DNA from: Flectonema sp. DT1601
Lineage: Eukaryota
Direction of reading: 5' to 3'
Length of the DNA stretch: 64,000 nucleotides
NCBI GenBank assembly: GCA_964019425.1
Contig: OZ025786.1
Coordinates: 124,001-188,000 of the forward strand
Part shown: positions 11,801 through 26,350 of the stretch, in pieces
Layout of the letters: each line of letters begins with the position of its first letter
Numbering within the stretch: the first letter of the stretch is position 1
Translations under genes and position numbers: made by a program
The notes under the pieces: model-generated
What the model was told of the DNA's origin: nothing
Seen by the model: the letters and a program-made list of their open reading frames with translations, nothing else
The model's database searches: none

Positions 11801-12416
11801 CTACAGCGCTACTAACTGGAATCGCTGTACCTTGTGTGGTGGGTTCTTCGGTTTCTGCTGGTGCCGGAGCTGGTGCCGAAACCAAATCTCCGTCAGTCGC
11901 ATGTGTCGCTTCTGATGTTGTTGATGGAGGTTTATTTCTAGCACTGGTCTTTACAGATCTAATCCTATCTGTTAAGCCCTTTAAGTCACTTTTATTAAAT
12001 ATACCTCCAGTTGGATCTTCTGGTACTGTCTTTGGGTGAAGAGCCCACTTATCAATTTGAGCGTCAAGAATTGAACCCACCGTATCTCTGTTTATTGTAT
12101 GACGTTTTGGTAGAAGCATGTCCATTGCTACAGTATCACCGTCGACACGTCCAACACCAACCGCGTTTAAAGGTAATGATGATCTAGATATTGCTGGACT
12201 TAAAGACTGTCTTCTTCTTGCTAAGTCTCTTGCTACTCTTGCAGCTAACATTCCATCATCATAACCTAAATCTGTTCGGTTGTCATTTACAAGACTCACA
12301 TTGTTACCAAATCCTACAGGGCTGACACTTCGTTGTCTCAATGGTGATATCCGTAATGATTGCATTACTTCCCGAACTGGGCTTCTCGCTCTGTTGTTAC
12401 TATGCACATTTTGCAT
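8884..12416 (-). CDS. Three-exon gene (~1128 aa): disordered N-terminus + PH-like domain + catalytically dead metacaspase domain
   Basis: Exons 12416-10296, 10220-10008 and 9936-8884 joined by phase-0 GTATG...CAG introns (75 and 71 nt) give one open frame; GVYFLKY...ERFF...RTMDL...FHKWV is PH-like; KALLIGISY and YYCGHS are metacaspase motifs, but DACHSG reads DAFRGSG. Confidence 0.85.
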
Positions 12417-12750
12417 CTATATTACTGTTAGAGATTAATACAATGATTGAACTTATAAAAACAATACGAGACGCTAACTAGCATTCCTTCTCCTTCCCAC
12501 GATGCACTGCCGCATGTCTGTCTGTCAGTCCTTCCTGAAACATTTGGATAATGGATGTGTCTGTGTTGTGAAAACATGTATCAGTCAAAATTGCCTTTCT
12601 TTTTGTTAATGTGGAGCCATGTCTTGAAGCATTGTAAGCTTTTGTTTTGCTCGCTGGATCACCGGTTATTTGCATCTCCCTTTCTATATTCCCCTTGTGT
12701 TTTCGTAACGTCATATGTTTCGGCATGTTATGTTTATTATATATGGGGTA

Positions 12751-12850
12751 CTGCAACTGGAAATATTACTGCGTGGAAAAAACCGCACTAAATTCCAAAT
12801 CTGCAAAAAACCGCACTAATTTTTCCACGCAGTAATATTTCCAGTTGCAG
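12751..12850. mobile_element. 100-bp MITE with TA target duplication (Tc1/mariner-like)
   Basis: TIR CTGCAACTGGAAATATTACTGCGTGGAAAAA at both ends, TA on each side; a longer relative starts at 63714. Confidence 0.9.
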
Positions 12851-13100
12851 TATTCTAAAAAAAATAAAATACAAATAAAATATGCCAGGGATAAGATCAG
12901 TCAATTACGATTGATAGATCGGCTTCAACAGTTACAGGCTCTAATGCATCCACCAACTCATCCTTAGAAGTCTCTTGATCACCTGACATGTTTTCGGAAT
13001 GCCAACTTCTTTAGCTTGAATGTGCCATATGACTCGAGCTTCTTCTTGATAGACTTGCTCTTCCAGACATCCTTATGCACTAATAATTAATTATTATTAT

Positions 13101-13857
13101 CATTGATGGAAGTGCCCTCCAAATTTGGAGGGCGCCTGGTGAAAATCAGCCACAAAAATTTGTAGGGCCAAAATAGGGCCATTGTAGGGCCAAAATAGGG
13201 CGCTGGAGGGCGCGTAGGGCGCTTTTTTAATTAAATTTAATATAATGCCGAGCTCATTTTGACACCCCTGCCCTCAGCGAGGGTCGAATCGCATCTTATT
13301 TGACTTTTCTCCGGTTCGCCCGATCAAATGCGTCTCTGGGATATCAGTTTACTTGCCACCAGTAAACTTCTTTTTTTTCTCACAAGGTACCGTGAAGACC
13401 GGCCTATTAACAGGTTAGCAAGAACGCACTCTCCCTCCTCGAATCCCTCTATATTCAACTCGGTGCATTCTGCGGGCTATCAGTTCCTTGTAGATCTGGG
13501 ATGCATCGTCCACTGAAATGAGTTTCAGCTTCAGGGATTGCAGCAGGCTCCGGAAGCTCTCAAGGAGTGGCCCATTGTTTTTTGCCATTGTTGACCTCCG
13601 AACCATGACCTGGAGGTCTCGGGTTCGAACCCCGTGACACCCTTTTTTCTCTTTCTCGAAAGACTGCCAAGCATGTCAAAAAAAATTTTTGGCTTCTGCG
13701 TCAAAATACTTGTGCGTCAGTGTAAGTCCCCGTCAATTTAGCTGTCTTATAGTAATAAAAAAGGTAAAAAAAAGCGCCCTCCAAAATAATATTTATATTA
13801 AAAGCGCCCTACAAGCGCCCTACACGCCCTCCAAATTGTAGGGCACTTCCATCTATG
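13101..13857 (+). mobile_element. 757-bp non-autonomous TIR element (CATAG family), 6-bp TSD
   Basis: TIR CATWGATGGAAGTGCCCT(C/A)CAA(A)TTTGGAGGGCG; TSD TATTAT; further copies at 51123-59030 and 61799-63007; internal B-box GGTTCGAACCC near 13622. Confidence 0.92.
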
Positions 13858-13961
13858 TATTATATGTGTAAATAATACTTAATTAAAATACTTAGTATTT
13901 ATTATCTGCTGTACTCAGTGTTGGTATAGTCAGCACTCAGTTCATCAACTAGATACCTAAA

Positions 13962-14955
13962 CAATTTGAGGCGATCGGCAGGGTGGAGGTGTTCACGATT
14001 TTTCACTTTGCTACACGAAAATTCACGATTTTTCACTTAATTTTTTGCTGCTTTCTGGTAGTGAAATTCCGTGAAAATGTGTGAATTCTAGTGAAAAAAG
14101 TGAGTGATATCCAGTGAATAATATGCGTTGCAATAGTACTGCTTTTGGATCTCTATGTGTCTTCGTTGCAATCTCTGCTGCCTTAACGATGGTGTGTCGA
14201 CATCAATGTTCTCATGTGGAACTCGCACAAGTAGGATGGTACCGTTGGTGCTGGTGTGCTGTGCGATGTCAAACCTGTTCAGTTTGCCATACATGTCACT
14301 TTGACAACTAAATGGGCATCGCTTGTGCCCAGTGACCCATCACCCTTCCTTACCATCGCTCGTGGTGAGGTTCTGGACTTTGGACCGGCGCATCGCGTGT
14401 GCAGTGGGTTTAATCACTGAGGGGCTCATTCTCATTCAGACTGTTCTGTTCTGTGGTGTCTTTCCATTACTCCTCCCATCTCTGCCAGGAGACAGCCTGA
14501 CAATGAGGCGATCGGCAGGGTGGAGGTGTTCACGATTTTTCACTTTGCTACACGAAAATTCACGATTTTTCACGATTTTTCACGATTTTTCACTTAATTT
14601 TTTGCTGCTTTTTGGTAGTGAAATCCTGTGAAAATGTGTGAAAATGTGTGAAAATGTGTGAAAATGTGTGAAAATGTGTGAAAATGTGTGAAAATGTGTG
14701 AAAATGTGTGAAAATGTGTGAATTCTAGTGAAAAAAGTGAGTGATATCCAGATGGTACCGTTGGTGCTGGTGTGCTGTGCGATGTCAAACCTGTTCAGTT
14801 TGCCATACGTCATGTCACTTTGACAACTAAATGGGCATCGCTTGTGCCCAGTGACCCATCACCCTTCCTGACCATCGCTTGTGGTGAGGTTCCGGACTTT
14901 GGACCGGCGCATCGCGTGTGCGGTGGGTTTAATCACTGAGGGGCTCATTCTCGTT
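13962..14955. repeat. Segmental tandem duplication with 10-bp microrepeats
   Basis: 13962-14437 is largely repeated at 14502-14955; (GTGAAAATGT)n at about 14628-14722 and CACGATTTTT repeats; likely subterminal region of the adjacent transposase relic. Confidence 0.85.
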
Positions 14956-16786
14956 CATTGCCTCCTCTTTTCGCTGAGCAGTTTTTTCTTGTGCAACTTT
15001 CCTGGCAGCAGCATTTTCTGCTGCTTTCGCTGCTTTCGCTTGGGTCAGTGTGGCGGACTGCTGGGGCACCGGGAGGGAGAGAGGGTCACGCAACTTTAGC
15101 TTTGTGGGGAGCTCCAGCGCAAAGCATTCAACAACAGAGAAAATGAATGCCCCGCGCTGGGACTTGGTTGGGGGGTTAGGTAGGGATGGTGCGTCCACCG
15201 GGATGATGCTGGCATCAGGCTTGGTGAGCATGGGGTCATCGGGGACATCGCTCTTCAGCTTAGAGACCTGAATGTGGTTCACATGGGAGAGGGCGTGGTT
15301 GACCTGCCTATTGACTTCCAGCAGGCGGGCGTGGTGAGGGGAGACTGTGTCACCGCAATAGCAGCAACGAAAAATGCCCTTTCCCCCCAAGGGTTCCAGC
15401 ATGTAGAACCATCTACCTGGAAGCTCGGTATCGAGCAATGCAAAAATCTTTTCCCAATAATCGAGGTGACAGTGGCCTGATCTTCTGGCCTGGCTGTCCT
15501 GAACTTTCTGCCGGTTAATCTTTTTGAAATGTTCTGTTGTGTTACCCTCAACAAGAAAACACAATGAAGCAGTTGAACGTGTGTCCTCTAACCAGGACAA
15601 CGCCCCTGCCAAGGCACCTGTAAAATCAACCCCCCCCTCTCAGAGACACATCTGTGTCTCATTGTCCGGTTTGCGTGTCACCTCTACTTCAGTGATACTG
15701 ACGTCATTCCTCTTCTTCATGCTGGTTTATGTTTAGTAGTGATAATAAAATAGCTGCTTGTTCAGATTCATCATTACTATGTAAAAAAGAGAAACACATA
15801 CTACCGAGATACAATGACCGACACCTTGTCAAGCAACTCGGCTGCGTCTGTCGTGAACTCCAGTGCCGTCCGTAGCATGCAAATGCTAAGGTTCAGAAGC
15901 GCCCATTCGTAACCTTCTCTTTAAATGGGCACGCCCTAAAAGAGATGCGGTGCTTCTTGCGAAGCCAGTAAGCAAACGACCGATTCCCACGTATGAAGAA
16001 GCACAGCGTTACTATTGAACGGAGGAAGTCACTGAGGCCAAAGTACTTCGCAATCCAGGAGGCAATGCAATGAACTCGGTGTGTAGGCTCCGGGATGAGG
16101 CAGATATTGCCATCTTGGTCAAATAATTTAAACCCCCTGTATTCTGATCCACCCCGATCACTGAGCGCAGAGGTAATCGTGCAGGTTGACAGAGGTGGTG
16201 GTGCCGGATCAGTGATTAAGATTCCGAGCTGCTGGAAGTGGTGCAGCGCACGTCGTAGTGTGTCACAGAATGATTGAGCTTGGTGGCTCTGTGTCAGTCT
16301 GCATGCAAGACTATAGCATGCAGTCGTAGCTGTAGCAGCAGTGATGTGTAGCGCTGACGAGTTTTCTGTCACAGATGTTGCGTCACTTACCAGGCAGAAG
16401 GTACTCTCCCGGTTGCGAATGAGAAACACACAATCCTGCACATACAACCACCGGATCATCTCTCTTCGTGCAGCCCAATAACTGACGGAGTCAAGACCAT
16501 GAAGCTGGCGGGTAAACTGCGGAATGCGGCGCATGGCGATGTGCTGCAAGAGGATCGGGACAACTGTACTTGGTGGCTGTGGGCGGAGATGCAGGGTCCC
16601 AGCAACAGTGTATTGCGATACACCGTCAACCTCACCAATCTTCTCATCGCACCAGATCAGCATGCCATTCGTGCCAGCAACACGAGCCCTAACCTCCAAG
16701 TCATCTTCAACTTCTAGTCCCATACCACCCAATACATCTAACAGCTTTGATCTGCTAGTCACATACAGCAAGATCTCTGCTGGCAA
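14929..16786 (-). pseudogene. Fragmented DDE transposase-like relic (hAT/P/Kolobok-type fold) plus a downstream CxxC...H...H zinc-finger ORF
   Basis: ORF 15893-16786 has FCLVSDATS, ALSDRGG and EPTHRVH (resembling the CxxH motif); ORF 14929-15612 has CCYC...HALSHVNH. Confidence 0.5.
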
Positions 16787-17245
16787 GGAATCACGAAGTT
16801 ACACTGTTACTCTTACGAGAGCCATGTGAATGAATTACCACAATAAACTGTAGAGAACGATAGGATTAACAAGCACCACCACTTCAACGATCACCACACA
16901 TGCCTATCAACCCACCTGTGCTAGAATAGTTCAGCAACCACATGAAACTGTAACAAGAGCTGGATTAAAGAGAACTTTAGTATTAACAACGGTGCATCAT
17001 TGCAAGAACTTTGAAGAATGTGATTGAGCTACTCAACAATCAGAAGCAATCGCGATGTTTTCGCAACATCGACATCGTCTCTCAGACTCGAGTCATATAT
17101 TTGGACCTGTACTTTGCTAAGTGTATTAGTGAGCTTCAGAACAGTGAACGATACATGACATGAAGACTGGCAATGATACTTACCTAGATCGACCTCGATA
17201 ATTCTCTCCACGAGCCGATGACAACTACGAAGCAATGCAGTTCGG

Positions 17246-17277
17246 GTTTTTCCCCACAAGAATATTTCCCTTTACAG
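17246..17277 (-). mobile_element. Solo TIR of the CTGTAAAGGG MITE family
   Basis: Reverse complement CTGTAAAGGGAAATATTCTTGTGGGGAAAAA matches the left end of 62416-62851; flanked by TA. Confidence 0.8.
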
Positions 17278-17289
17278 TATAACGTTATT

Positions 17290-17536
17290 TATTTATTTAT
17301 TTATTTTTCATGTTTGATTATTTCCTCTTCATATTATATTTTCTTTTTCTGCTTCTTTCTTAATTCTGTTCGTTTCTTTGAAACGAAAACTCATTTGATT
17401 ATTATTCCTTGGTCAGCATCTGTCATTGTCGCCCTTTGGGCCTGTAAAAAAAAAAACCAAAAAGAAAGTTTACATCGGGAATAGGGCAGGAGCCAAAAGC
17501 TCCCAGTCCGTTACCTCCCACCTCTTCAAAATCAAT
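17290..17536 (-). mobile_element. Diverged, truncated copy of the satellite-head element
   Basis: Matches 26090-26350 (GGGAATAGGGCAGGAGCCAAAAGCTCCCAGTCCG) with substitutions. Confidence 0.85.
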
Positions 17537-17741
17537 TTAAAAAGCCGCCAACTCCACACAAACTTTTTTTAAAAAACTACCAGTTCTACACAAAGTTTTA
17601 AAAACCACCAGCTCCACACACAAAGTTTCAAAAAACCACCAGCTCCACACACAAAGTTTTAAAAAGCCGCCAGCTCCACAAAAAGTTTTAAAAAACTACC
17701 AGCTCCACACAAAAAGTTTTAAAAAGCCGCCAGCTCCACAA
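17537..17741. repeat. Degenerate ~30-bp tandem repeat, about 7 copies
   Basis: Unit about AAAAAGCCGCCAGCTCCACACAAAGTTTT. Confidence 0.85.
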
Positions 17742-17854
17742 ATTAGTTAGTTAGAATATGAGTTTGTTATAAAAAAGTGCACTAAAATAAAATATAAAAA
17801 AGAAAAGTTATAAAAACACATTGTTCTGCTGTTCCATAATATACTGTGGAATAC

Positions 17855-17920
17855 GTAGTTTCAGGCCTTAATCTTATACTACTTGTCCCTCTTAGGCCTT
17901 CATCAGTAAGTTCTAGGGAC
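17855..17920 (-). ncRNA. Hammerhead ribozyme motif with non-canonical strand order
   Basis: Minus strand: GUCCCU-AGAA-CUUA-CUGAUGA-AGGCCU-AAG-AGGGAC-AA-GUAGU-A-UAAG-AUUA-AGGCCU-GAAACUAC; the full core and helices I, II and III can all be formed. Confidence 0.72.
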
Positions 17921-18033
17921 TTCATTCCAGTTAAATAATAAATCGGATCCATCAATTGGTCTATTTCAAAAGAACTGATTTCTTAATGTCCATCGGAGCT
18001 CGCCAGGACGGGCTAGCATATATTTGCTTTTGA

Positions 18034-20574
18034 TCAGCGTTCTATCTCTTCTACATCTGTTCGTTTTATTACGAGTGCGAGTTCTCCTTCATCGGAGCTG
18101 TAGTCGTCTTTCTTGCGCTTTTCCTTAGTGTTGGTGAGGAGTAGAATTCCTTCATTCGAGGGTGCCATGGTACAGTCGTTATCATTATTATTACCCTGCA
18201 GAGTTTTTCTTAAAATCATGTGAAAACAATATTCTGGGCGTTTAAAATGTCTGTCAAAATGGTCGAATGATAATCGTCGGTCTGTCGCTCCTTTGAGAAT
18301 GTCTCTAACAATAATGGAATCAAAGGAGACAAGGGCCACTATGTAGTGTGACATTCTAGCACCAGCTTTGTTTAAAATGAATGCGGCGGCTATTGTTGGG
18401 TAGTCCATAGAACTGGGATCTACAAATTGGTGGATTTCCCTGTTGAGTTTATGTTTACTTGCTACCCCCAGAACGGTTAAAGAGAACCAACCATCCGGGG
18501 ATGGTTTTTGCTCGTTGCTGCCAGGTTCTACTTTTTGATGTTCTTCGTAGAATGTTTGTTGTAGTTCTTGCAAATAGCTGAAATTAATTCGGTCAAGATA
18601 AAGATGGTCTGCAACAAAATTCAGAGATGCCCATCCACACTCACCTCCAATTAGACCTTCCCCTGAAGATTGATGTGATTGTATTGGGAATCGTTTGTCT
18701 AAGGTGTGAAGTGTGGAACTTTTATGATTAATGGTGTCTTTTTCGTCGCTTACAGGGATACCATGATTAAACTTTTCGGAAGTAATATTTAGTCGTCTTC
18801 GAATTGCAGCTGCAACATTGCCATCGTCAATATATAAGTTGATAAAGCTGTGACAAGCTACTGCGAGGTTCTTAAACTTGTATCCTCGGTTGAGTAGTCT
18901 GTATGTTACGAACTCGAGCTCTTGTAGAAGATCCGCCTGATTATTACAGATTCTGAGTGCTCGTAGGAGCATGGTGGTGAAGATACCAGTACCCATCGAT
19001 TCTTGAGCAGCTGAGTGCTGGTGGGTGAATCTTGTTGGTATGATATGCCAACCACGCGCTTTGTCGTTCACGCTAAGACGTATCCACCTGTTGTTTGATC
19101 TGGTGGTTTCGATTCGGATTCTAATTCCAATGTATGAAACATCATCAACACCATTAGAGGTCTCGGTGTAGTTCATGGAGTATAATTCTGCTGGTGGTGG
19201 GATGCAGTTCCATGTAAGGAAATCGTCTATGTACCGGCAAGAGTAGTCGTGTTTGCGTGCTAAATCTAACTCTCCTTATGCTACAAGGTCATCCATAAAT
19301 TTAGATTCGATTCTGTAACAGTAGAGATTAGCTATATCGCTACTTGCGTTGCCGCCCATGGGAATGCCAACTACTTGTCTCCATAGGTTTCCTCTCATTG
19401 AAATTAGAGAATTATCCACACAAAAGCTTAGAAGCGCTCTACATTCCAACTGTGATAAAGCACGGTAGGTCGCAGGGTCATTAGATTCAAGTCGCATAAT
19501 ATTCTTGAATTCGAATACTTCTTTAATTGCTTCATTCACTTTATCTTTGATCTCCTGGTGGGGTAGTCGTGTATACATCGTAGTGAAGTCGTGCGTCTTG
19601 GGAGATAGGCCTTTTAGTCGAGTTGTGTTTAATTTAATATCAGCAGCTATGTCTTTATCAGATTCGACTATCCAATAACGTTTGTATTTTGAATTCATAT
19701 CTTTTTCTTTTAGTAGAGCCATCACATTTTTAAGAATACTTGATAGATGCAGATGGGCGTGTGTTGTGGCTGTTGCGGGTGCCGTTTTGTGCTCCTTGTC
19801 TAATTGACGCTGCTTCTCCGTTCCTGTGAGTGAAGAGGCTCCCGAAATCCATCTCATCCCAATAGCTGACTTGTGCAGTTTAATCATGCCGTAGAGATGT
19901 GGTAGTCTATCTGCATGCTTGTTTCCTAAGATTTTATTATTCTCAGCTAAGAAGGCTAGAGTGATTTCCTCTGTTGCTTTCAATTGTTGATAGGCTGGAC
20001 CTCCTAATTGTTTGCTGAGGAGACTCAGGTAGAAGGATTTACAGATGAAACCAATATCATGTTGTCCTTTGTCTACTTTTAAGAGAACCATCGAATTTTG
20101 TAGTGAAGAAAGTTCTTTGAGAGCTTTGCTTGACAGCGGGGAGTCAAGGAATGAAAGGTCTCGGCTCAGTTTGGTGTGGAGATGCTTAAGAATTACGTTT
20201 TTGAAGCGAAGTTTAATATCGTCAGTGGTGTTTCTGTAAGCTTTATCTACGTAAACTGCTATGTCGCTTTCGAGCGAGTCCATTGCTGCAGCGGGGTGCT
20301 TTGGAACTCTGAATTTCTGTCCTCGTGCAAAGAAATCTCGTAATTCGGCAGATACGGGAAGATTTACTGCTAGACCGCAGGCGTGGCCATCGAATTTAAT
20401 ACTTCCTGGAACGAGAGTACAACAGGGACATGGTGAACAGAGGGGTTCATCGCATCCATTCCCAACAGAAGTGGCGTTTAATACAATATCTCCTACAGTT
20501 GTACCCAGTTTGTGACAGATTCTAGTTCTGCTTAAGGTTTTTAAATTTGGACAGACAGCCTTAACTTCGTCACT
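18034..20574 (-). pseudogene. PLE ORF: RT + thumb + C-terminal Josephin-like cysteine protease; one in-frame TAA at 19278-19276
   Basis: Frame is open from about 20574 through ORF 19276-20283, continues past the TAA (DDLVA*GELDLARKHDYSCRYIDD) into ORF 18034-19176. Confidence 0.82.
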
Positions 20575-21267
20575 GTGTTAGTTAGTTAGTTAGTTAGCAA
20601 GTCCATCAGACCACCGAGTAAGTAGTAGGGAAGGGACATGTCTGGCCCACTTTACATATTCATATGATATGCAGTCACAAAGGCATCAGCTTCCATATCT
20701 GAAGACCAAACCCTACCAATGCAAATCTGCAGACCTAGAGGCTTTCTGTGGTCATAGTAAGGGACATGTCTGGCCCAGTTTCATATTCACCTAACTTTGC
20801 AGTCCTACAGCCAACAGCTTGCAGATATACATACCAGAACCCTACCAATGCGAATATGCAGACCCAGAGGCATTCTGCCATTCACTAAGATCTGTATCAC
20901 AGAGCTACCAGCTCACATATCTGCAGTGCAAACCCTGCAATGCAAGATCTGCAGTCCCAGAGGCCTTACATGGTCATACCTGCAAGTTGTAGACATTCAA
21001 GGTATGTCTTTACCTTAAGTTGCAACTTCGACCCTACACTATGAAAGCCAATTACCTTCAAGCACTACTAACTTGTAACCTTCGCCACCTACCAAAAAAC
21101 CATCACTTCAAGAACCATAGGTGTGATAGAGGCATACAAGCTTGAACACCAAACCTCGATTCTGATGAGACCCATTTAAACATAAGTCGCCTACCTAATA
21201 AAAAGTACTAGTATACTATGTCTATGCAAGTATTCCTTTACCAACTGTAAACCTACTAGTCACTACT

Positions 21268-22710
21268 TTAATTTTCTTCTGTTCCTTCTTCCTCACAACC
21301 ATCAAGATTTTGCTGGCTGTTTACACTGACACTGTCACTTACTTGCATGTTTTGCATATTGCGGTTATGCCGTTCAACCAGATATTTCACAAAATCTGAT
21401 GGTTTTGTATGAGTTATTGTAACTGCAATGACACATGAATCAATAGCTGACAGTGTTGGAGAGCGTAAGCACGAAAAGTACTGGATTGCAAGCTCTGGTG
21501 TCTTGAAACAAAGATGCAAGGTTACAGGGCAACGTTGGTCATCGTTTTTTTTGAATTTCGTTTGTTCACTGGTAACAGACAACAGGTTAAGTTCATCATA
21601 CATCGAGTGTAGGTCTCCATTCATGAAAAGGCGGTTTGCAGGATCGTTGTCAGCATAGGCCTTATTTCCTTTGCACGCTCTCTTCTCTAATATGTGACAT
21701 GATTTGAGGGCGTAAAACTGATCGTTACTGTGGTCCATCAGCGATTCGTATTCGACCTGTTCCTTGGTTACCCTGGTGTGTGAGGGGATACTCTCTGTCT
21801 GCTGTGCCTCTGTTACTGCAAAGGTCCGCTTCGGTGTGTCCTGATCGTCGTAATCTCTCTCCTTCACCCTTTGATTGAAGTCGAAATTGAAATCTTCAGG
21901 AGCTTCTTGAAGTTCAAAACGAACAGGTTTCATCTCATTCAGGTCAAACCGTTTGTGGTGCTTTTCCCACTTGTTGCACATGTCCACTGCCCTCTCCTTG
22001 GTTTCGAAGTAGAGTTCGACGTTAAGGTTGCTGTTGCTTGTTAATTGACCTTCAGGTGCTAAATCGCTTATTCCAGTCTTTTCATATTCACACTTCATTG
22101 AATATCCCTGCAAGTTCGCGGCAGATTTGTAGAGATTCCCCTTGTACTTCCCATAGCTGAAACCATCTGGCACAGTACCCTTTAACATAAATCCCCTTGA
22201 AGATGTGTTCACCCTCCTCGCTTGTTCATTCTCTGCACTCTTACGGTAACTTGCCTCTCGGTCTTCGAGTTTCTGGATGCTAGCATCCAGTTTCGTTACT
22301 TGCTCTTTCCAATGCTTGTATGCGTTCGATTTGAAATCATCTTTAGCTACACACTCATTCAACTTGTCATTAGCTTTCTTCAGATCTTCCTTTTCCGCCA
22401 AAATCTGATTGGCTGCACTAGCAACCAGATTCCATTGCACTCTCTTCACTTGATTGGACTCACCTTCCAAACTGTCTTCGTTGTTTCGTGGTGTTTTCAT
22501 GGATGACACAGGTGAAAATGGGACATCTGAAGTCGTCACCTTGGGGGTTTTTTTAGGAGTCATCTCTACACTCTTCTTGGTAGAACTGCTACTAGAACTG
22601 CTGCCGGAGTCGTTTACACATTTTCCTGTAGATTTCTTCCCAGCACTCTTTGCTCCAGCTTTCTTCCCAGCTTTCTTTGATGCCTTTTTTACAGCCTTCT
22701 TCTTCGTCAT
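21268..22710 (-). CDS. Lys-rich/coiled-coil protein with a C-terminal HNH-like endonuclease domain
   Basis: 480-aa ATG ORF; SCHILE...DNDPANRLFMNGDLHSMYD fits the HNH_2-type AHI...D.P.NxLxLxxxLHxxFD pattern. Confidence 0.65.
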   Translation of the reverse strand: MTKKKAVKKASKKAGKKAGAKSAGKKSTGKCVNDSGSSSSSSSTKKSVEMTPKKTPKVTTSDVPFSPVSSMKTPRNNEDSLEGESNQVKRVQWNLVASAANQILAEKEDLKKANDKLNECVAKDDFKSNAYKHWKEQVTKLDASIQKLEDREASYRKSAENEQARRVNTSSRGFMLKGTVPDGFSYGKYKGNLYKSAANLQGYSMKCEYEKTGISDLAPEGQLTSNSNLNVELYFETKERAVDMCNKWEKHHKRFDLNEMKPVRFELQEAPEDFNFDFNQRVKERDYDDQDTPKRTFAVTEAQQTESIPSHTRVTKEQVEYESLMDHSNDQFYALKSCHILEKRACKGNKAYADNDPANRLFMNGDLHSMYDELNLLSVTSEQTKFKKNDDQRCPVTLHLCFKTPELAIQYFSCLRSPTLSAIDSCVIAVTITHTKPSDFVKYLVERHNRNMQNMQVSDSVSVNSQQNLDGCEEEGTEEN

Positions 22711-22936
22711 TTTAAAATAGACGAAAGTTTAGGGGTGGGTTTATCTGTGAAAAGAAGCTGAGGAAAGACACAGCAAATTTATTTACCTAAGAAACAGAAA
22801 AAAGGCATTCCATCCTGTCTTACTTGAGAACTGAAGCTGGTGTTTGGCTTACATCACTTGACTTGTGTTTAAATATGTGTTAGGTTCCTGTGGAGAAATA
22901 ATTGATTTAAATAATAGTATGGATATGCAGGTAAAG

Positions 22937-25768
22937 TTACTTCGGGATCTCAATGCTACCATATGCAAGGGTCCTCTTGCCATCAGGGCAGATGTATCGC
23001 TTGTCATCATATCTACTTAATGCAACACGTTGGAACTCTTTTGTCATTAGTCTTGTACTCTTACTGGTTATGGAGTTGTAGGTCACAGACTTACTCTCAC
23101 CAGTCTCAAGAGTGTTAGAGAAGTCATCTAATTTAAACTTTGCAGACTTGGATCTTGGAACTCCCTTAGCTTTTACATGTGTTTGGGCTTCATCAACTAA
23201 TGTGTAAGCATATGTCTTGGCTCTTAGGAAGATACCTTCACTGATCAGTTTGCCATCTGTCTCATCCTTGAAGTACCCCGCAACCTTCTTGTTTGTTTGA
23301 GAACAGGAAGTGGTCCTCTGGGTAGTTGCAGGTGTCCAGTTCATCCTTGATACCTTCCAGTGACTTATGTAGGTCATCTGTCTTGATGTGTAGAATGAAG
23401 CTGTCTGTGTCAGTATAGACGAGTGATATGTTGTCCCGTCCATAGTGTGGGATTAGTTTGTCATAGAAGAAGCCTGTCATAAGTTGTTTGCTGTAGTCTA
23501 AGATCTGACTACCAGCATATACAGGCTTGTTGAGGGTTACGCTCCGCTTGTGCATATCCAACATGCAGAAGTTACCAATGTCAACTCTACTGAACTTGAA
23601 TGCATAGTGAGATTGTTCCTTTACTAATTTGTCATAGTCGTTCTCAACTATCTTACATGAAGCTCTACCACGAACGTTCTCCAGTGTCTTGCCATAGACT
23701 GCGTTGTTCAGTAACTTATATAGGTCCTTCTCAAATTCATTCTTAGCCTGCTGTCTAAACCCTGTATTCAACTCAATGTACTGTCTAAGCCAAGCCTTCT
23801 GATCATAGCTGACAATGCGATGAACTTTCTTCAGCACCAAACCGTGATCTAACAGGAACGACAGGTACTCGATATTGTAGATCTGTTTGACTCTTGGATT
23901 GAAGTCGCATATCAACTTCTTATGACCAGCCTTGTCCTTCTTGCAACCCAGCTCACCCTTCTGATATGGAGACAGTTCGTCATAGTCTACTGATCTGTTG
24001 TATGGGGCGAGTGGGAAGTCCCAGTGGTCCTTGTGCAACGACTCAGGATACTCTAGGTCAACCTCTATAGCATATCCTGTTGACTGTTGATCATCATAGC
24101 TCCTTATGAACTCTGGGGTTACAAATGAGGTGTCCTTCACCCACTGGAAGTTTGCATAGGGCAAGAACTTCATCATCGCCCAACCATACAGGTTGTTTGC
24201 ATCTGTGTACCAAAGATAGCTTGGGTCCTTGTCCTTGTTGAAGTCTGCAGTGTTTGGGATGTTTGCCTTTACATGTCTCTGAACAGCCATCGTCAGCCCA
24301 CCTCGCTTCTGATCTTCAAAGAACGCATACATGTCAGGGTCAGATACTAAGTCGAGTTGCACGTTGGTGTTCAGGAGCATCGCATCCCAACTGTAACTGC
24401 TCAGTGAAACATAGTAGACTGGATCGAGTCTATGAGAGGCTATAAATGTGTTGCGATAGTTGTCCATCACATCAGCCAATCCCAATATATCCCCTGCCAG
24501 ATATAGATCGTGATAGTCTTTGAATGACTTCATCTTCAGCATGGTCCATATCTTCTTTGCCTTGGCGAACGTCTCCCTGCTGATGTGCTTATCGCTAAGT
24601 GTGTCATACCATTCCTTCTTTCGAGGCAACTCCTTGGCACTTAACCTCTTGTGATTCTTAAACCATGTGTATGGAAACGCACCTTTAGATAGGAGTAAGC
24701 TTAGGTTCTCCTCATTTACTTCAGCACCAGCATCTGCAAGCTTCTTAGACATGAAGGCAGTCATCCTAGGTTTGTGGTTGTTTGGTAGGTTCTTCAACAA
24801 TGTATCAAGTGATGATGGGATCAGTTGAAGACTATCCTTTACACATACCTTGATGCGATCCATGTACTCACCACGTTTGAACTTGAACGATATGAGCATC
24901 GTTGTCTCACTGTTGTTCTTGATGGCATCGAGGTTGTTACGAGTGTATTTCTTGCCATCTTTGCAGGCTGTCTCATAAGTAAGTGGTAGATCAGAGTTAC
25001 CAAGCATCCTCCAGATGTGGTTGTTGTCGTAGCCTCTGGCGTTGTGGAAGTAGAGCGGTACATCACCATACAGTTGCTTGTCCCTAACGTTGATATTGCA
25101 ACCACTACATGAAGCACCTCTATACTTACCTGTTAGATGGCAGTGATCATGGACCTTTGCCTTGTCGCTACTAAAGGGTTCCTCGCAATAACAACAGTGA
25201 GTGGACAGTTCATATTCTCTAACCTGAGCCTTTGTAATAATCATCTTGCTGACATCTGTAAATAATTTCTTTTTCCAATATTGACGTTGCCCATTATCTT
25301 CTTCAGATCGTTGTAGAATGAGTCGAGTGTCTTCTTCTCAAAGTCGGCTGTGTATAACTTCTCATCAATGGCTGGATCATATGTGTACATGTAATCAGTT
25401 GCATACTTCCAGTTCAACTCTGGAGACATCAAGATGGATCCTATATGAAGATGCCAAATGGCGACCACCTACAATCATGCTTTCGAAGTCTGCGATCATC
25501 ACGAAGGGTTTCTTCACAGTGTTGTTGTAGTTTGTGAACTTGATTTTGCTACCCTCCTTTGGCATGGTTACACGGGATGCCTCGTTGTTCTTGCAATTGT
25601 TAAAATGTTCGAGCATCGTTGTTTCTTTCTTGAACGAGTGCAGGCATCTGGGGCAGTGGGAACCATGTTTTGAATCGCTACCCATGAGACGGCCAAGTGA
25701 CTTGATCCACATGTAATGATCTTCGAAGAACAGAAGATTAATCCAATCCTCACAGGTGGCATCACCAA
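22937..25768 (-). pseudogene. Protein-primed family B DNA polymerase, frameshifted
   Basis: IADFES, VHDHCHLTGKYRG, FHNARGYD, KDSL, TDANNLYGWAM, KLLNNAVYGK, YTDTDS, LRAKTY and KAKGV spread over several overlapping ORFs. Confidence 0.95.
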
Positions 25769-25789
25769 ACTGTAAAAATAAATAAAAAG

Positions 25790-26350
25790 ATTATAAAAAA
25801 AAAAAAAAGAATAAACAATGTTATCATTGTTTTTTTTTATCGATCGACTATGTCGATTACTTTCTATTTTCCGTCCCGATCGAGACGCTAAACTGATTGT
25901 TTCCTTTTTTTAAATAATAAATAAAAAAAAAAAAAAAAAAAAAAAAAGAGCATCTCCCTGCTATCCTCATATCCCCACAATAATATTATACCTTTTCATT
26001 TTCTCTTTCCTTTTCTGGTCTTTTTTTTTTTTTTTCTTTTTTTTCCTTTTTCATACAACGTTTTTTATTTATATTTTATTTTTTTTTTTATTTTTTTCAT
26101 GTTTGATTATTTCCTCTTCATATTTTTTTTTCTTTTCTTTCTTTTTTTTTTTTTTTTCTCTGCCTCTCTCTTAATTCTGTTCGTTTCTTTGAAACGAAAA
26201 TTCATTTGAATATTATTCCTTGGTCAGCAACAGTCATTGTCGCCCTCTGGGCCTGTTAAAAAAAAAAAAAAAAATAAAAAGAAAGTTTACATCGGGAATA
26301 GGGCAGGAGCCAAAAGCTCCCAGTCCGTTACTTCCCACTCTATCGAATTC
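25790..26350 (-). mobile_element. Satellite-head element plus one satellite unit, inverted
   Basis: Reverse complement of 51817-52300; ends sharply at ...CTATCGAATTC. Confidence 0.9.

Follow-up and report, generated by a model that had tools for sequence, protein, structure and literature searches.

A candidate type-CSG hammerhead ribozyme in the 3' UTR of a Naiad/Chlamys-type Penelope-like element

Can the strands of a hammerhead ribozyme that lie in an order foreign to types I, II and III still assemble into a self-cleaving RNA, and what kind of element carries them? These questions were raised by a 66-nt segment on the minus strand of the window (the whole stretch of DNA analysed here, 64,000 nt in length), which the first-pass annotation had read as a hammerhead with the strand order X-Z-Y in the 3' UTR of a Penelope-like element (PLE). 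All of the segments it described were found on the minus strand where it had placed them, and their pairing bore out both the hammerhead core and the strand order. Between 17920 and 17855 all hammerhead core nucleotides are present together with four helices, in which 21 of 21 pairs are Watson-Crick. We concluded, with a probability of about 0.78, that the segment is a complete hammerhead core in the order C-S-G within the 3' UTR of a Naiad/Chlamys-type PLE, predicted to fold as a single strand and to be cut after A17877. The positions of the ribozyme, the host element and some related structures are summarized in Table 1.

Table 1. Positions of the candidate ribozyme, its parts and its host element in the window, and of split-core forms in related loci
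Feature	Coordinates	Strand	Basis or remark
Candidate type-CSG hammerhead ribozyme, 66 nt	17855..17920	-	pairing and descriptor match
Helix P (joins stems I and II), 5' strand	17915..17920	-	mean nested pair probability 0.94
Helix P, 3' strand	17885..17890	-	pairs with 17920-17915, 6 bp
Block C: helix I 5' strand, CUGAUGA, helix II 5' strand	17894..17910	-	
Block S: helix III strand, GUA triplet, helix I 3' strand	17873..17882	-	
Block G: helix II 3' strand, GAAA, helix III strand	17855..17868	-	
Linker from helix I to helix II, 4 nt	17869..17872	-	
Possible outer helix, 5' strand, 7 bp	17923..17929	-	fold prediction only
Possible outer helix, 3' strand	17847..17853	-	fold prediction only
5'-truncated RT frame of Naiad/Chlamys-type PLE, one in-frame stop	18034..20577	-	CxC, DKG, RT motifs, C-terminal extension
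Element 3' UTR	17755..18033	-	matches of two public contigs end at 17747 and 17749
4-nt repeat at the element 3' end, three copies, likely target remnant	17743..17754	-	
Same 4-nt repeat at the 5' truncation point, five copies	20577..20597	-	
Split-core form in locus L031	3493..3566		
Split-core form in locus L032	3203..3281		
Split-core form in locus L047	3106..3215		
Split-core form in locus L067			
Split-core form in locus L076			

Helix I is formed by 17910-17907 with 17876-17873 (4 bp, one of them G-C), helix II by 17899-17894 with 17868-17863 (6 bp, both strands being one self-complementary hexamer), and helix III by 17882-17878 with 17859-17855 (5 bp including A15.1-U16.1). The core is made up of CUGAUGA (17906-17900), GAA (17862-17860) and the GUA triplet; the CUGANGA, GAAA and UH elements are each directly flanked by helices I, II and III, as a hammerhead core demands. 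The pair at 10.1-11.1 is A-U, the common form being G-C. The predicted cut, between 17877 and 17876, lies 14 nt from the GAAA, and its earlier placement after A17877 agrees with the finding that no other U-H site within 400 nt on either side pairs helix I (4 bp) together with helix III (5 bp); in the same range the GAAA at 17862 is the sole one with a 6-bp helix II. The extra helix that had been proposed to pin the linker is also present, with spacers of 4 and 3 nt, and is called helix P here.

Both strands of the 64-kb window were scanned with a CSG descriptor and with a descriptor for all six block orders, and in each case the candidate was the single match. In 400 block-wise dinucleotide shuffles no match was obtained when helices I, II and III were required to have at least 4, 6 and 5 bp, respectively, one was obtained at 4/4/4 and six at 3/3/3; the spacing ranges were set after the motif had been seen, so these counts give an order of magnitude only. 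We also scanned 28 and 21 viral loci and 44 GTDB loci for the CSG pattern with helix III fixed, so that a slice of the possible sequences was covered. At a minimum of 3, 3 and 4 bp for helices I, II and III the passes were 0, 1 and 0, respectively; the single viral pass has 3/3/4 bp and was treated as chance, and none of these 93 pattern-matched viral and prokaryote loci holds a fold of the quality seen in the window. Among 45 stretches of viral contigs taken from an RT alignment, no RT relative was confirmed. The shuffles and the 93 loci make a chance match hardly credible, and the same holds for an ordinary type I hammerhead in which block Z is simply loop II and the cut falls at the GUA at 17854-17852, behind block G: this second GUA could close a 2-bp helix III, but with a single helix I base paired there it dropped out of the enumeration even when two were enough. 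As the first-pass annotation had anticipated, standard searches overlook the segment, since Rfam returned no hammerhead in 12000-26000 at E<=1.

The fold was examined with ViennaRNA. Of the four helices, the best nested fold contains P and III and no other (pair probabilities 0.94 and 0.98), and helices I and II cross all the other helices. The stacking added by helices I and II amounts to -4.3 and -14.2 kcal/mol, respectively, loop costs being uncounted. By itself the energy of the nested fold is unremarkable (z about -1.6); this fold buries part of block C, and the 5' strand of helix I has two further exact partners nearby, at 17894-17891 and 17870-17867. We propose that two adjacent hairpins would form first, helix P around block C and helix III around the cut site and block G, and that their loops would then pair with each other via helices I and II. 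The predicted result is a kissing-loop double pseudoknot, in which the kissing of the loops would rebuild the ordinary hammerhead active site and helix P with the 4-nt linker would stand in for the contact between loop I and loop II. By analogy we infer that the copy in the window can cleave. Judging from work on other PLEs, the cut would separate unit-length RNAs from tandem or read-through transcripts, and circularisation possibly follows, because about 120 nt of the element beyond the cut still get copied.

The order X-Z-Y had been presented as lying outside types I, II and III. This stands as far as the non-circular order is concerned, for the blocks run C-S-G and helices I, II and III cross each other instead of forming a nested three-way junction; it does not stand as a new topology, since Eckert, Friedrich, Weinberg and Weinberg (2023), who define three hammerhead blocks, C, G and S, have already validated X-Z-Y as type CSG (PMC10085705). 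According to the accessible part of that paper, type CSG is represented in soil metagenome DNA by 2 similar unique sequences, or 5 when all are counted, and cleavage of CSG-1 and CSG-2, in each case at the expected site, was observed in the course of transcription, with rates of 0.004 and 0.026 per min (PMC10085705). Its support there consists of the two similar sequences and three covarying pairs, the host element is unnamed, and the authors grade the evidence for its biological relevance as weaker than that for type SGC (PMC10085705). The window RNA has the type-CSG attributes, namely blocks C, S and G from 5' to 3', a helix that links stem I to stem II and a short linker from helix I to helix II. 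With CSG-1/2 it shares the length of 66 nt, helix P bracketing block C, a step of 2 nt before the 5-bp helix III and the 4-nt linker. It differs from them in helix I (4 bp versus 6), helix P (6 bp with spacers of 4 and 3 nt versus 8 bp without spacers), the 10.1-11.1 pair (A-U versus G-C), the cleavage triplet (GUA versus GUC), the distance from cut to GAAA (14 nt versus 16 nt) and the context, a eukaryotic retroelement 3' UTR as against soil metagenome DNA with an unnamed host element. The two published RNAMotif CSG descriptors restrict N7 to U, require G10.1-C11.1 and allow no more than 10 nt from helix II to helix III (PMC10085705). The window RNA matches neither of them, owing to its A-U pair and its 11-nt linker, and thus this copy would escape them; in the available text these limits are search settings and are not stated as defining the type. 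On its sequence, we consider the window RNA a real new member, as a predicted ribozyme, of the rare type-CSG class. The X-Z-Y order itself is already published; what is new is the Naiad/Chlamys retroelement context.

The location in a Penelope-like 3' UTR was confirmed by the RT frame 20577-18034, which lies upstream with its stop codon 114 nt from the ribozyme; the placement of the host element in the Naiad/Chlamys group had not been recognised in the first-pass annotation. Two public contigs end their matches within the 3' repeat tract, and the 3' end of the element was therefore put at about 120 nt past the predicted cut. Overall they differ from the window at 3 positions in 274 nt and at 2 in 161 nt, and over the 66 nt they are identical to it, so that they are uninformative on covariation. 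The RT of the window is 99% identical to that of P0002, the frame of which is open; a more diverged family, P0003, is 67% identical. CxC and DKG motifs are present upstream of the RT core, and C52, H65, D169 and K170 are invariant or nearly so. The best full-length relative, P0010 of Diplonema papillatum, has 36% identity over 99% of the query and carries a GIY-YIG domain N-terminal to the RT. A GIY-YIG match was found in 11 of 26 long relatives, which were chosen from 150 matches listed; it is always N-terminal and never C-terminal, and 4 of the matches are above the Pfam cut-off. The copy in the window has lost its 5' end, including any GIY-YIG region, by truncation. The spacing from RT motif A to B' is 75 aa as against 89-99 in three relatives, short for an insertion-in-fingers, a comparison made without a canonical-PLE control. 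By eye, six near relatives have no zinc-finger cysteines in the endonuclease, and in a quick midpoint-rooted tree of 38 rows, built without curated references and with L047 and L053 omitted for internal stops, the window family groups with the cysteine-less relatives, apart from three zinc-finger-bearing rows. Because of the CxC and DKG motifs, the N-terminal GIY-YIG of the relatives and the grouping in the tree, the sequences point to the Naiad/Chlamys group, on the Chlamys side.

The published description of Naiad/Chlamys PLEs, as far as accessible, agrees with the window element in CxC, DKG, N-terminal GIY-YIG (here in the relatives), 5' truncation, a microsatellite at both ends and the lack of a canonical hammerhead, and the C-terminal extension of the window element resembles that of Chlamys-1_cBra (PMC8557442). 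Among named relatives, the nearest are diplonemid proteins (32-37% identity) rather than curated Chlamys families. Since a 4-nt repeat flanks the element on both sides, a telomeric endonuclease-less PLE of the Athena/Coprina kind had also been considered; this was rejected, as the relatives carry an N-terminal GIY-YIG, the ribozyme is of the CSG form and not canonical type I, and the element is internal to the window. Many of the RT relatives (P0011, P0017, P0026, P0027, P0030, P0034 and P0066) have a C-terminal UCH domain above the Pfam cut-off; the C-terminal extension in the window, 18130-18720 on the minus strand, differs from UCH and looks like a cysteine protease by eye only. By eye, we had presumed this domain to be Josephin-like, a guess that was dropped when no Pfam match and no PDB match were obtained and the AlphaFold model, with a pLDDT of 34, proved unusable. 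The 39-nt 5' flank at 20582-20620 recurs in one contig (run X1), where it adjoins a copy that covers 17747-18020, its 5' truncation being at 18020, and the outer flanks are different, which suggests a repeated preferred target or a PLE tail; in run X2 a copy starts at 17840 behind the same 4-nt repeat.

Is the window RNA alone in this group? Craig et al. (2021) reported that Naiad and most Chlamys elements are without canonical hammerheads, and flagged eight Naiads with a second half-core 35-50 nt from the first (PMC8557442). The spacing of the half-cores in the window RNA is 37 nt, inside this published range. We looked through 3' ends in the consensus file of that study by eye and non-exhaustively, nothing being computed, and searched the supplement with nine 8-letter core variants, matches that span line breaks being missed; what follows holds among the matches listed. 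Of six half-core Naiads inspected by eye, 3 have a complete CSG with helix P and 3 have a split-core order. Altogether, CSG folds were drawn by eye for Naiad-3_Nbra (P 9, I 5, II 4, III 6 bp), Naiad_Hpol (P 13, I 5, II 5, III 9 bp), Naiad_Smim (P 10, I 5, II 5, III 6 bp, with one extra base after the core), Naiad-2_Nbra (P 12, I 5, II 5, III 6 bp), Naiad_Hcon (P 15, I 6, II 5, III 11 bp) and a Pristionchus Naiad consensus (P 10, I 6, II 5, III 12 bp), and a probable one for Naiad-1_Nbra (P at least 11, I 5, II 5, III 11 bp). Among these seven nematode and spider Naiads the stem sequences differ while the pairing is kept, as judged by eye and with no statistic; the distance from cut to GAAA is 13-16 nt, and helix I has 5-6 bp as against 4 in the window. 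For Chlamys, no clear CSG was seen among the matches listed in the supplement, which held one imperfect candidate. In the accessible text of Craig et al. only cores and half-cores are flagged, whereas the window element has a complete, non-circularly permuted hammerhead (PMC8557442). It is likely that the predicted CSG of the window is one form of the ribozyme that the Naiad/Chlamys group was reported to lack.

Two models had been offered for the active RNA, a pseudoknotted monomer and an obligate dimer. PLE type I hammerheads lie near the 3' end of the element, as does the core found here; protist and fungal PLEs have monomer-competent forms, and dimer action has been proposed for the minimal hammerheads of animal PLEs (Cervera and de la Pena 2014, PMC4209133). 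These type I ribozymes are three-way junctions of order C-G-S, often minimal and dimeric, whereas the window RNA would be a double pseudoknot of order C-S-G (PMC4209133). That it is active only as a dimer, with helix II formed between two molecules through the palindrome, seems improbable to us. Such pairing is allowed by the self-complementary hexamer in both strands of helix II, recalls the dimer action proposed for the animal motifs (PMC4209133), and gives a nested cofold of two copies at -37.5 kcal/mol versus 2 x -15.5; however, the pseudoknotted monomer is beyond what the nested model can score, which makes the two energies unfair to compare, and strands could be swapped without any palindrome. 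Moreover, helix II is non-palindromic in CSG-1/2 and in the seven Naiad folds, and thus the palindrome is not a shared feature and an obligate dimer is unneeded. Helix III is here a stable 5-bp stem, unlike that of dimer-type motifs, and the window holds a single copy. Of the two models the monomer was favoured, with CSG-1/2 cleaving during transcription, and the monomeric kissing-loop fold is the likelier.

A second question is whether this monomer cuts efficiently on its own. The motif may have been kept by descent and be barely active alone, needing a protein of the element or serving as a protein-binding or priming structure, a reading that we regard as unlikely, even though helix I is weak and has competing partners and the published CSG rates are slow (PMC10085705). 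It also draws on the hammerhead of one Poseidon element, which in the available text is dispensable for insertion in vitro and cuts only with the assistance of protein (PMC11167929), and on the 5' truncation points at 20577, 18020 and 17840, 0 of 3 of which coincide with the cut; together these two observations count against an essential role. On the other side, the catalytic positions are all intact in the window and in the seven nematode and spider Naiad consensi, which selection for cutting explains more easily. We keep the single-strand fold, predicted to self-cleave, as the preferred reading.

To see how the ribozyme is distributed, we used 48 metagenome loci encoding RT relatives with 25-49% identity, many of whose contigs end early. 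At the strict setting none of the 48 has the CSG or any of the six orders; at the relaxed setting there was one weak antisense CSG match and 0 of 48 on the sense strand. L038 and L043, of the window's own subclade, have neither CSG nor the split-core form in the sequence covered. The split-core form was found in 5 of the 48, belonging to three families (Table 1), as against 1 match per 100 shuffled sets. In the published consensi it was recognised by eye as well, namely in three from Acropora, two from Octopus, the one from Euprymna, Naiad-4_Dst and two unlabelled Naiads. Its layout is the helix II 5' strand, P, S, G, P, helix I and CUGAUGA. With the window CSG it shares the S-then-G module, the short linker from helix I to helix II and helix P; in the split core the P-I-CUGAUGA part comes after block G, and a gap in the backbone separates A9 from 10.1, whereas in the window this part precedes and the backbone is continuous. 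Since the only difference is whether P-I-CUGAUGA comes before or after the rest, the layouts imply that CSG and split-core forms are circular permutations of one wiring. No covariation was observed within the window family (two contigs) or across the 48 related loci, and Rfam, run on 18 of the 48, gave no ribozyme but only microsatellite matches to mir-297. Another conserved multi-hairpin RNA lies directly after the RT stop in L035 (5545-5660), L036 (5885-6000) and L053 (3043-3150), and also in L037 and L041, relatives that end in a 4-nt microsatellite; it has 30 predicted pairs, one of them compensatory among three sequences, and no Rfam match, and it could be another ribozyme in the same 3' slot. 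The 3' ribozyme slot is often filled in the relatives, and CSG is patchy. The window CSG may either have been inherited together with the nematode CSGs or have been re-derived from the split-core form.

We lean, by a narrow balance, towards the view that the Naiad/Chlamys clade as a whole, its protist and animal members alike, had as its ancestral 3' ribozyme a pseudoknotted hammerhead of reversed order, which was opened at two different points. Opening after block G would give CSG, as in the window element and the nematode and spider Naiads, and opening between A9 and 10.1 would give the split core, as in corals, octopus, ostracod and freshwater protists. If so, the reported lack of hammerheads in this clade would be a search artefact, type CSG would be an abundant ribozyme of eukaryotic retroelements instead of a rarity known from two sequences, and CSG-1/2 from soil would represent pieces of Naiad/Chlamys elements. 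The retroelement 3' UTR gives type CSG a biological setting, and its known diversity would be multiplied if the seven Naiad folds are counted. A transposon clade that holds the same catalytic core in two related wirings would also be a natural record of how non-circular RNA permutations originate. In a literature search from which subscription journals were largely outside, type CSG was found only in Eckert et al. (PMC10085705), Craig et al. (PMC8557442) was the only paper to combine Naiad, hammerhead and permutation, and split-core Naiad hammerheads were not found in print. In their accessible parts, a 2026 bioRxiv retrozyme preprint deals with type I hammerheads only and PMC13725137 merely cites Eckert et al.

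Several other features were noticed in the window. Just past the element 3' end, 17536-17740 holds about 6.7 copies of a 31-nt repeat, which is outside the part common to other copies of the element. A Twister-P1-like motif (14852-14935, minus strand; 31 bits, E 0.002, gathering 67) lies at the end of an ORF at 14929-15639, and a second copy with 97% identity within 14292-14438 shows few differences, one of them in a predicted pair. Upstream of the truncated element and in the same orientation, 21268-22728 (minus strand) encodes a 486-aa ORF with a basic N-terminus and no Pfam match, followed by a 128-nt duplication. The region 22937-25790 (minus strand) contains a frameshifted type B DNA polymerase and an endonuclease VII motif and is Polinton-like; it adjoins A/T-rich inverted-repeat elements, the end of which recurs at 17285-17532.
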